From Dictyostelium discoideum (taxonomy: Eukaryota): 64,000 bases of DNA. The notes under the pieces were generated by a model. The model saw nothing but the letters and a program-made list of their open reading frames with translations, was not told the DNA's origin and did no database searches. Positions 50,484 to 51,162 of the stretch are shown in pieces. The position numbers and the translations under genes were made by a program. Within the stretch, counting starts at the first letter, position 1. Each line of letters opens with the position of its first letter. The stretch covers positions 1,632,001 through 1,696,000 of the forward strand of contig CM000150.2 of assembly GCA_000004695.1 (NCBI GenBank), in the 5' to 3' direction.

Positions 50484-51033
50484 TTAAATTTGATTAATTA
50501 ATAGCTTTTTCTTTTGTGGTGATAGTACATTTTTTTTTTTTTTTTTAATTATGAATTCCAAACTTTGTATTTTATGAATTGCGATAATTGTACATTTTCT
50601 TTTTATGTGAATTCTTTTTTTGATTTTATTGATTGGTAAACAATCACTTGTAACGGCTAATGGATATGATGATGAGTTGATAGTTTCATTTGTATTTTTG
50701 GAATTCCATTTATTTCCCAAATATTGAAAACTTTTTCTAATGAAAAATTCAAATTCATCAACTTTAATTGATTGATTTTGATTAATTTCTTTTTCTTTTT
50801 TTTCTTTTTCTTGAATTTGTTTTAGTTGATTATCAACCACTAAAATCGCTTTATCATTTATTATATGTTACTGTTGCTGTTGTTGTAAATATTGATATTG
50901 ATCATCAATAATAAATGTTTGTTGATGGTAAAAATTATCTTCAATATCATATTCTAACTTTGGTGTAGGCGGACACTCAATTATAAATGTTGGGTCAATG
51001 AAATCATCGTGTTCCTAAAAAAAAAGATCAAAA

Positions 51034-51065
<32 letters not shown>

Positions 51066-51162
51066 ATTTTTTTTTTTATTTTTTTTTTTATTTTATTTTA
51101 TTTTATTTTCTTACTTTTAAAATTTTATCAAGACTATAGTTGTATGTAAAAACTTGATCCAT
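50484..51162 (-). CDS. Small two-exon gene (exons 51162..51115 and 51024..50878) ending at a TAA after which the same frame stays open for 118 more codons (to 50484). Possible pseudogene, readthrough or polymorphic stop
   Basis: Exon 1 is ATG...AAA|GTAAG (MDQVFTYNYSLDKILK). The acceptor is TTTTTTTAG. Exon 2 encodes EHDDFIDPTFIIECPPTPKLEYDIEDNFYHQQTFIIDDQYQYLQQQQQ and ends at TAA (50880..50878). Downstream in frame: HIINDKAILVVDNQLKQIQEKEKKE...EFEFFIRKSFQYLGNKWNSK.... The track ORF 50484..50840 is that downstream stretch, beginning at GTG. Confidence 0.4.

Follow-up and report, generated by a model that had tools for sequence, protein, structure and literature searches.

The gene DDB_G0268202, on the minus strand of chromosome 1 of Dictyostelium discoideum AX4, reads from its sequence as a two-exon gene of 192 codons, in which a C to T change turns the CAA codon of Gln-65 into TAA (position 50870 of the window, the 64,000-nucleotide stretch of DNA analysed here, to which all positions refer). 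The explanation is a mundane one: a CAA-to-TAA change private to the AX4 reference in an otherwise intact and conserved gene, most likely an error of the reference sequence and, failing that, a young nonsense allele of a laboratory lineage.

Gene structure and the reading frame past the stop

The gene occupies positions 50484-51162 of the minus strand. These are exactly the outer limits given in an earlier, sequence-only reading of this DNA, which had also correctly recognized an exon 1 running from the ATG to AAA/GTAAG and followed by exon 2. The components of the locus are as follows:

51115 to 51162, minus strand: exon 1, 16 codons (MDQVFTYNYSLDKILK), 48 nt, starting with the ATG at 51162 and ending at AAA/GTAAG
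51015 to 51114, minus strand: A/T-rich intron of 100 nt, GTAAG...TTTTAG, found at the same position in all orthologs, where it measures 74-102 nt
50871 to 51014, minus strand: exon 2, codons 17-64 (DFIDPTFIIECPPTPKLEYDIED...), the best-conserved part of the protein
50868 to 50870, minus strand: in-frame TAA at codon 65, with a C to T change of the coding strand at 50870 relative to the CAA/CAG of the relatives
50487 to 50867, minus strand: 127 more in-frame codons (HIINDKAILVVDNQ...KKKLLINQI), corresponding to the C-terminal two thirds of the protein in every other genome
50484 to 50486, minus strand: terminal TAA, ancestral, at the same stop position in the presumed AX2 locus (L003; see below) and in L004 and L002

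The spliced AX4 frame encodes 64 amino acids (16 from the first exon and 48 from the second), identical to DDB_G0268202 / XP_647641.1 / Q55F92, and the annotated model of DDB_G0268202 ends at the TAA of codon 65. Three details of the earlier reading had to be corrected: the product, given there as 63 amino acids, has 64, matching XP_647641.1; the TAA, placed at 50880-50878, lies ten bases lower, at 50870-50868; and the codons past the stop, counted as 118, number 127 (50867-50487), the lower figure being the count from the first GTG, which is internal to the stretch. This stop is the only lesion of the AX4 locus, whose frame is otherwise unshifted and whose two splice sites are preserved. The length of exon 1 and its GTAA(G/A) donor are conserved in the 7 other genomes compared.

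It had been argued that so long an open frame after the TAA was unlikely to arise by chance, and this proved well founded. The probability of finding no stop in 127 codons is 1.7e-6, calculated with the segment's own base frequencies (78% A+T), and 1/200,000 shuffled sequences was free of stops, which together rule out a chance open frame. Read in any of the five remaining frames, these 381 nt have 8-17 stops, and the G+C content is 22-26% across the segment vs 10-15% in the flanking spacers. All indels between species within the gene are multiples of 3. The stretch beyond the stop (EFEFFIRKSFQYLG...), which had been described as coding-like with conserved-looking segments, is real coding sequence, with the motif FIRKSF-Y-G conserved in all eight genomes; IKRKCT..I.KIQSL constitutes a further clade-wide motif. 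Values of dN/dS (Nei-Gojobori; dS up to 0.65-0.84) were 0.22-0.54 past the stop and 0.01-0.18 for codons 1-64, and the downstream part of the gene is thus under purifying selection. We also considered whether this part could be a separate downstream gene and discarded the idea, since its 127 codons do not include an ATG and since, in every ortholog, the upstream exon and this part make up a single ORF.

A search with the conceptual read-through protein as query led to orthologs in seven other Dictyostelium genomes: three D. discoideum assemblies, D. cf. discoideum, two of D. citrinum, and D. dimigraforme. In each of them the syntenic gene has one intron and an uninterrupted ORF of 160-192 codons and is flanked in all cases by the genes for a Branch-domain glycosyltransferase and for a protein of the 485-aa type. 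The proteins of the D. discoideum assemblies measure 189, 192, and 188 aa, that of D. cf. discoideum 191 aa, and that of D. dimigraforme 160 aa, and the gene models of the two D. citrinum genomes give 137 and 136 aa. Judging from the DNA of D. citrinum (L009 1501-2111, L008 1501-2100), where the single conserved intron is followed by an ORF of ~175-180 codons, these two models are mis-spliced, with spurious predicted introns giving unrelated C-terminal residues. The possibility that short C-termini are a recurrent natural state, raised by the 136/137-aa models, was therefore rejected, as the DNA holds the full ORF. At codon 65, D. cf. discoideum has CAG, the three D. discoideum assemblies share CAA, and AX4 alone has TAA; the ORFs of D. 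citrinum and D. dimigraforme run uninterrupted. Comparison with other dictyostelids had been proposed as a check on the stop, with orthologs that end at the same position and diverge downstream as the outcome that would speak against a longer gene; the opposite holds, since the ORFs read through and the discoideum group carries CAA/CAG at codon 65. As expected of a young nonsense allele, the closest relatives have intact orthologs, and the AX4 gene carries just one disabling lesion. Separately, a wild isolate of D. discoideum (L001, ~3650-3674) was observed to carry a TAA of its own two codons before the usual end (...LLIN, stop, QI, stop), which indicates that the extreme C-terminus tolerates truncation.

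A near-isogenic assembly and the cluster of AX4-private substitutions

The assembly GCA_054883475.1 (ACTFIT) has an identity of 99.4-99.65% with the window across 41 kb, with zero differences in 9.2 kb of it (51967-61162), homopolymers included, whereas mismatches amount to ~4.5% in the two remaining assemblies labelled D. discoideum. It is also the only one of the three with chromosome (CM) records. Locus tags starting with ACTFI, as well as ACTA71, are those of PRJNA1300491 (Holland et al. 2025, PMC12745789), a project in which ten isolates were assembled from Nanopore plus Illumina data: AX2-214, CR116C, OT3A, M4B, S6B, three of the D. citrinum clade, D. dimigraformum, and D. intermedium (PMC12745789). 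AX2-214 is the sole laboratory strain among them, and an identity of 99.5% between AX2 and AX4 has been described at another locus (PMC12745789). By elimination, GCA_054883475.1 is almost certainly AX2-214, and we refer to it as the presumed AX2-214 assembly. Ax2 and Ax3/4 both derive from the NC4 clone DdB (PMC2643946), and the axeB deletion is identical in Ax2 and AX4 (PMC4374526), which points to a common axenic ancestor of the two.

At codon 65 the presumed AX2-214 assembly has CAA, so that the ancestor of the laboratory strains had CAA and an intact gene. An independent and near-isogenic assembly therefore disagrees with the AX4 reference at this codon and matches the outgroups, and the same C is found in L001 and L004. 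A single ONT + Illumina pipeline produced all the comparison assemblies; artefacts shared through this pipeline are possible at low-complexity sites and implausible at the TAA/CAA site itself. In the alignment of window positions 20307-61162 with L005 and L010, AX4 was the longer sequence, by 1-13 bases, at all 25 internal indels, every one of which sits in an A/T homopolymer or a simple repeat. This bias suggests either a systematic shortening of long homopolymers in the Nanopore assembly or their over-extension in the Sanger reference, and it looks like a platform artefact irrelevant to the stop.

The stop lies within a group of substitutions that separate the AX4 reference from the presumed AX2-214 assembly:

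50358 to 51966, no strand assigned: cluster of nine substitutions in 1.6 kb, private to the AX4 reference, at 51966, 51964, 50888, 50870, 50528, 50493, 50402, 50398, and 50358
Changes of the cluster in the glycosyltransferase gene: R23K and D24N
Changes of the cluster in DDB_G0268202: L59 (synonymous), Q65stop, L179V, and K190N
Change of the cluster in the 485-aa gene: N476I (50358)

Coding sequence is hit by seven of the nine, with six nonsynonymous or nonsense changes among them, and the seven are distributed over three adjacent genes. Over the remaining ~39 kb compared, the number of coding differences was 0, and the differences found there were intergenic, mostly in or beside A/T runs. The clustering has a Poisson P of ~6e-5, corrected for the number of windows. 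Polarity was set by the two more distant D. discoideum assemblies, and every substitution of the cluster that could be polarized in this way is derived in AX4; in the 6.7 kb around the gene, 10/10 polarizable differences are AX4-derived. At 50358, the base of the presumed AX2 assembly gives Asn, which D. dimigraforme and D. citrinum encode as well (DNA read by eye). The spectrum of the cluster is mixed: A:T to T:A changes number at least four, G:C to A:T changes four, and a single change is A:T to C:G. Those of the G:C to A:T type share one strand and lie within 1.1 kb, and three of the four occur at 5'-AG of the plus strand. In size the patch approximates one shotgun clone, and very long homopolymers lie at its bounds. 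No second copy of 50300-52000 was found in the window, and a collapsed paralog was ruled out on this basis. Outside the cluster, two intergenic positions 38 bp apart (34011 and 34049) have C in AX4 and T in the presumed AX2 assembly. These differences are unpolarized and may be changes on the AX2 side; close pairs of G:C/A:T differences thus occur elsewhere in the window too.

Origin of the stop codon

The sequence-only reading had offered four explanations for the stop, of which a strain-specific nonsense change and a sequencing error survive, "recently pseudogenised" being the same as the former if the change is real; the fourth, programmed readthrough, falls with the lack of conservation of the stop. 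Regulated decoding of the TAA, yielding proteins of 64 and 192 aa, would fit a downstream frame that is open, conserved, and under purifying selection, and the locus does resemble programmed readthrough genes in that a long, conserved frame of protein-like character follows an in-frame stop. The AX4 stop is also followed by C, a base that favours leakiness in other eukaryotes. However, none of the seven other genomes has the stop, a sense codon or an uninterrupted ORF being found instead, and since these orthologs do without it, the downstream conservation is explained by ordinary translation. TAA is, moreover, generally the least leaky stop codon. Examples of readthrough are the UAG-CAA-UUA type of plant viruses and the UGA-CUAG genes of animals, and the context CAG-TAA-CAT-ATA matches neither the UGA-CUAG nor the UAG-CAR-YYA motif. 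Folding of the 120 nt past the stop gave no significant RNA structure (z = -1.44; 17/200 shuffles fold as well). Readthrough genes therefore differ from this locus, with its unconserved TAA lacking both motif and structure and its conservation contributed by stop-less orthologs, and programmed readthrough was rejected as extremely improbable.

We give no more credence to a splice that bypasses the stop. The C to T change creates a GT (CAG/GTAACA, gene position 292), which could be joined to the acceptor TTTTTCATTAG 135 nt downstream, so that 45 codons including the TAA would be dropped in frame and a protein of 147 aa would result. A scan for GT...AG pairs across the stop did find this in-frame pair, together with a 141-nt variant. 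Such a splice is a possibility read from the letters only, however, and it applies only if the T is real; its GTAACA donor is weak in comparison with the GTAAG of the real intron, and the "intron" would consist of A-rich sequence that resembles coding DNA and is translated in all orthologs. A conserved intron removing the stop was not found among the orthologs, which translate the whole interval. It is also highly improbable, if slightly less so, that the wild population that yielded NC4 already carried the TAA allele as a polymorphism. Nonsense polymorphisms are common in fast-evolving, lineage-restricted genes, and the wild isolate L001 has its own early TAA, but the presumed AX2-214, near-isogenic and from the same DdB/NC4 clone, has CAA. 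All polarizable local differences are on the AX4 side, unlike what is seen between two natural haplotypes, and a natural haplotype difference was discarded on these two grounds.

A real nonsense mutation that became fixed in the AX3/AX4 lineage once this had split from Ax2 deserves more attention, although we regard it as somewhat doubtful. The nine substitutions would then be a shower caused by mutagenesis or error-prone repair, living AX4 would make only a 64-residue fragment with the most conserved motif, and the downstream part would simply be undecayed. Changes that are private to AX4 and derived in AX4 support this reading and a reference error equally, and unselected new mutations would be expected to change the protein as often as these do, in six of seven coding cases. 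The four strand-coordinated G:C to A:T transitions within 1.1 kb keep a real mutation alive as an alternative: clusters left by alkylating agents look like same-strand G:C to A:T changes at 5'-AG, and AX3 is reported to have been isolated after nitrosoguanidine treatment. Nevertheless, at least five of the nine changes are A:T transversions, among them that at 50358, where only the AX4 reference departs from an Asn conserved across species; nitrosoguanidine is not known to produce A:T transversions, and a mixed pattern like that of the cluster is not known from any single chemical mutagen. The apparent common axenic ancestor of Ax2 and AX4 also leaves little separate history in which the changes could have accumulated. 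The base-substitution rate has been measured as 2.9e-11 per site per generation (PMC3466296), which excludes nine independent spontaneous mutations in 1.6 kb within the time of laboratory culture and makes nine such changes impossible without a special event. Laboratory lineages do carry private lesions, e.g., the axeB deletion and the chromosome 2 duplication (PMC4374526, PMC2643946). The axeB/NF1 deletion (PMC4374526) resembles the present case as a disabling change of laboratory strains that is absent in wild relatives, in a gene otherwise intact; it differs in being common to Ax2 and AX4 and selected for axenic growth, whereas the codon-65 stop is absent from the presumed AX2 assembly, has no known phenotype, and is known here from the reference sequence only. 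That the TAA and its eight neighbours are all real, as one localized shower across three genes that left AX4 a natural knock-down with a 64-residue module or, by way of the new GTAACA donor, a 147-aa form, in a species whose base-substitution rate is among the lowest measured, is in our view unlikely.

We favour an error of the reference: the stop probably belongs to a low-quality patch of the 2005 Sanger sequence, and we infer that the cluster is a sequencing artefact and not a real mutation. A group of base-call errors would have arisen in a poorly covered 1.6-kb stretch of the shotgun reference, for example, one that lies between long A/T homopolymers and was closed with only one clone. The annotated product is thus the first 64 residues only, with the other 127 codons lying intact and unannotated past the stop. 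The downstream frame has stayed open because the change either does not exist in living cells or arose no more than a few decades ago, and not because readthrough by ribosomes is intended. Very long homopolymers are where shotgun assemblies often break, and a patch the size of a clone and bounded by homopolymers favours low quality over a real mutation shower. On the other hand, nine substitution errors in complex coding sequence are rare for an 8x consensus. Lines derived from AX4 have been found to share 1,916 candidate substitutions relative to the reference, attributed by the authors to reference errors or stock differences (Saxer et al. 2012, PMC3466296). As in that set, the discrepancies described here are single-base differences that set the reference apart from same-lineage material sequenced independently, and they reflect no biological design; here, however, nine of them are clustered and one creates a stop, by which the official model is cut to a third.

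The protein, its neighbours, and use of the locus

A Pfam search with the DDB_G0268202 protein gave no match above threshold, and in an exhaustive profile search of 1.84 billion representatives the relatives were only discoideum, citrinum, and dimigraforme sequences. By these searches the product is a small, clade-restricted protein. Its AlphaFold2 model has a pLDDT of 46 and a pTM of 0.16, both low, with just three or four predicted helices, and the protein is probably largely disordered. The N-terminal 55 residues are its constrained part. A literature search returned no paper mentioning DDB_G0268202.

Two further features of the window were noted. Convergent with DDB_G0268202, positions 48932-50389 of the plus strand contain a single-exon ORF of 485 aa with an (SE)n run and a tract of ~36 asparagines; its orthologs are annotated at 391-580 aa, and its repeat region is probably length-variable or inconsistently modelled. 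In L005 (1705-4685, equivalent to ~56.5-59.5 kb of the window), a 765-aa gene model of the presumed AX2 assembly shows a weak match to reverse transcriptase (RVT_1), and the window probably holds a retroelement remnant at ~56.5-59.5 kb.

The outcome of this work is a corrected gene model and the flagging of a suspect 1.6-kb patch of the reference; it has no bearing on recoding biology. The 64-aa DDB_G0268202 of dictyBase/RefSeq represents a third of a conserved 192-codon gene, and its model needs correcting. The codons affected in the glycosyltransferase (R23K, D24N) and in the 485-aa gene (N476I) are probably wrong in the reference too, or else private to AX4. For orthology and proteomics databases, and for the design of knock-outs at this locus, use of the full-length sequence is advisable over the AX4 model. 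If the cluster is real, it would mark a genetic difference between the workhorse strains AX4 and Ax2.
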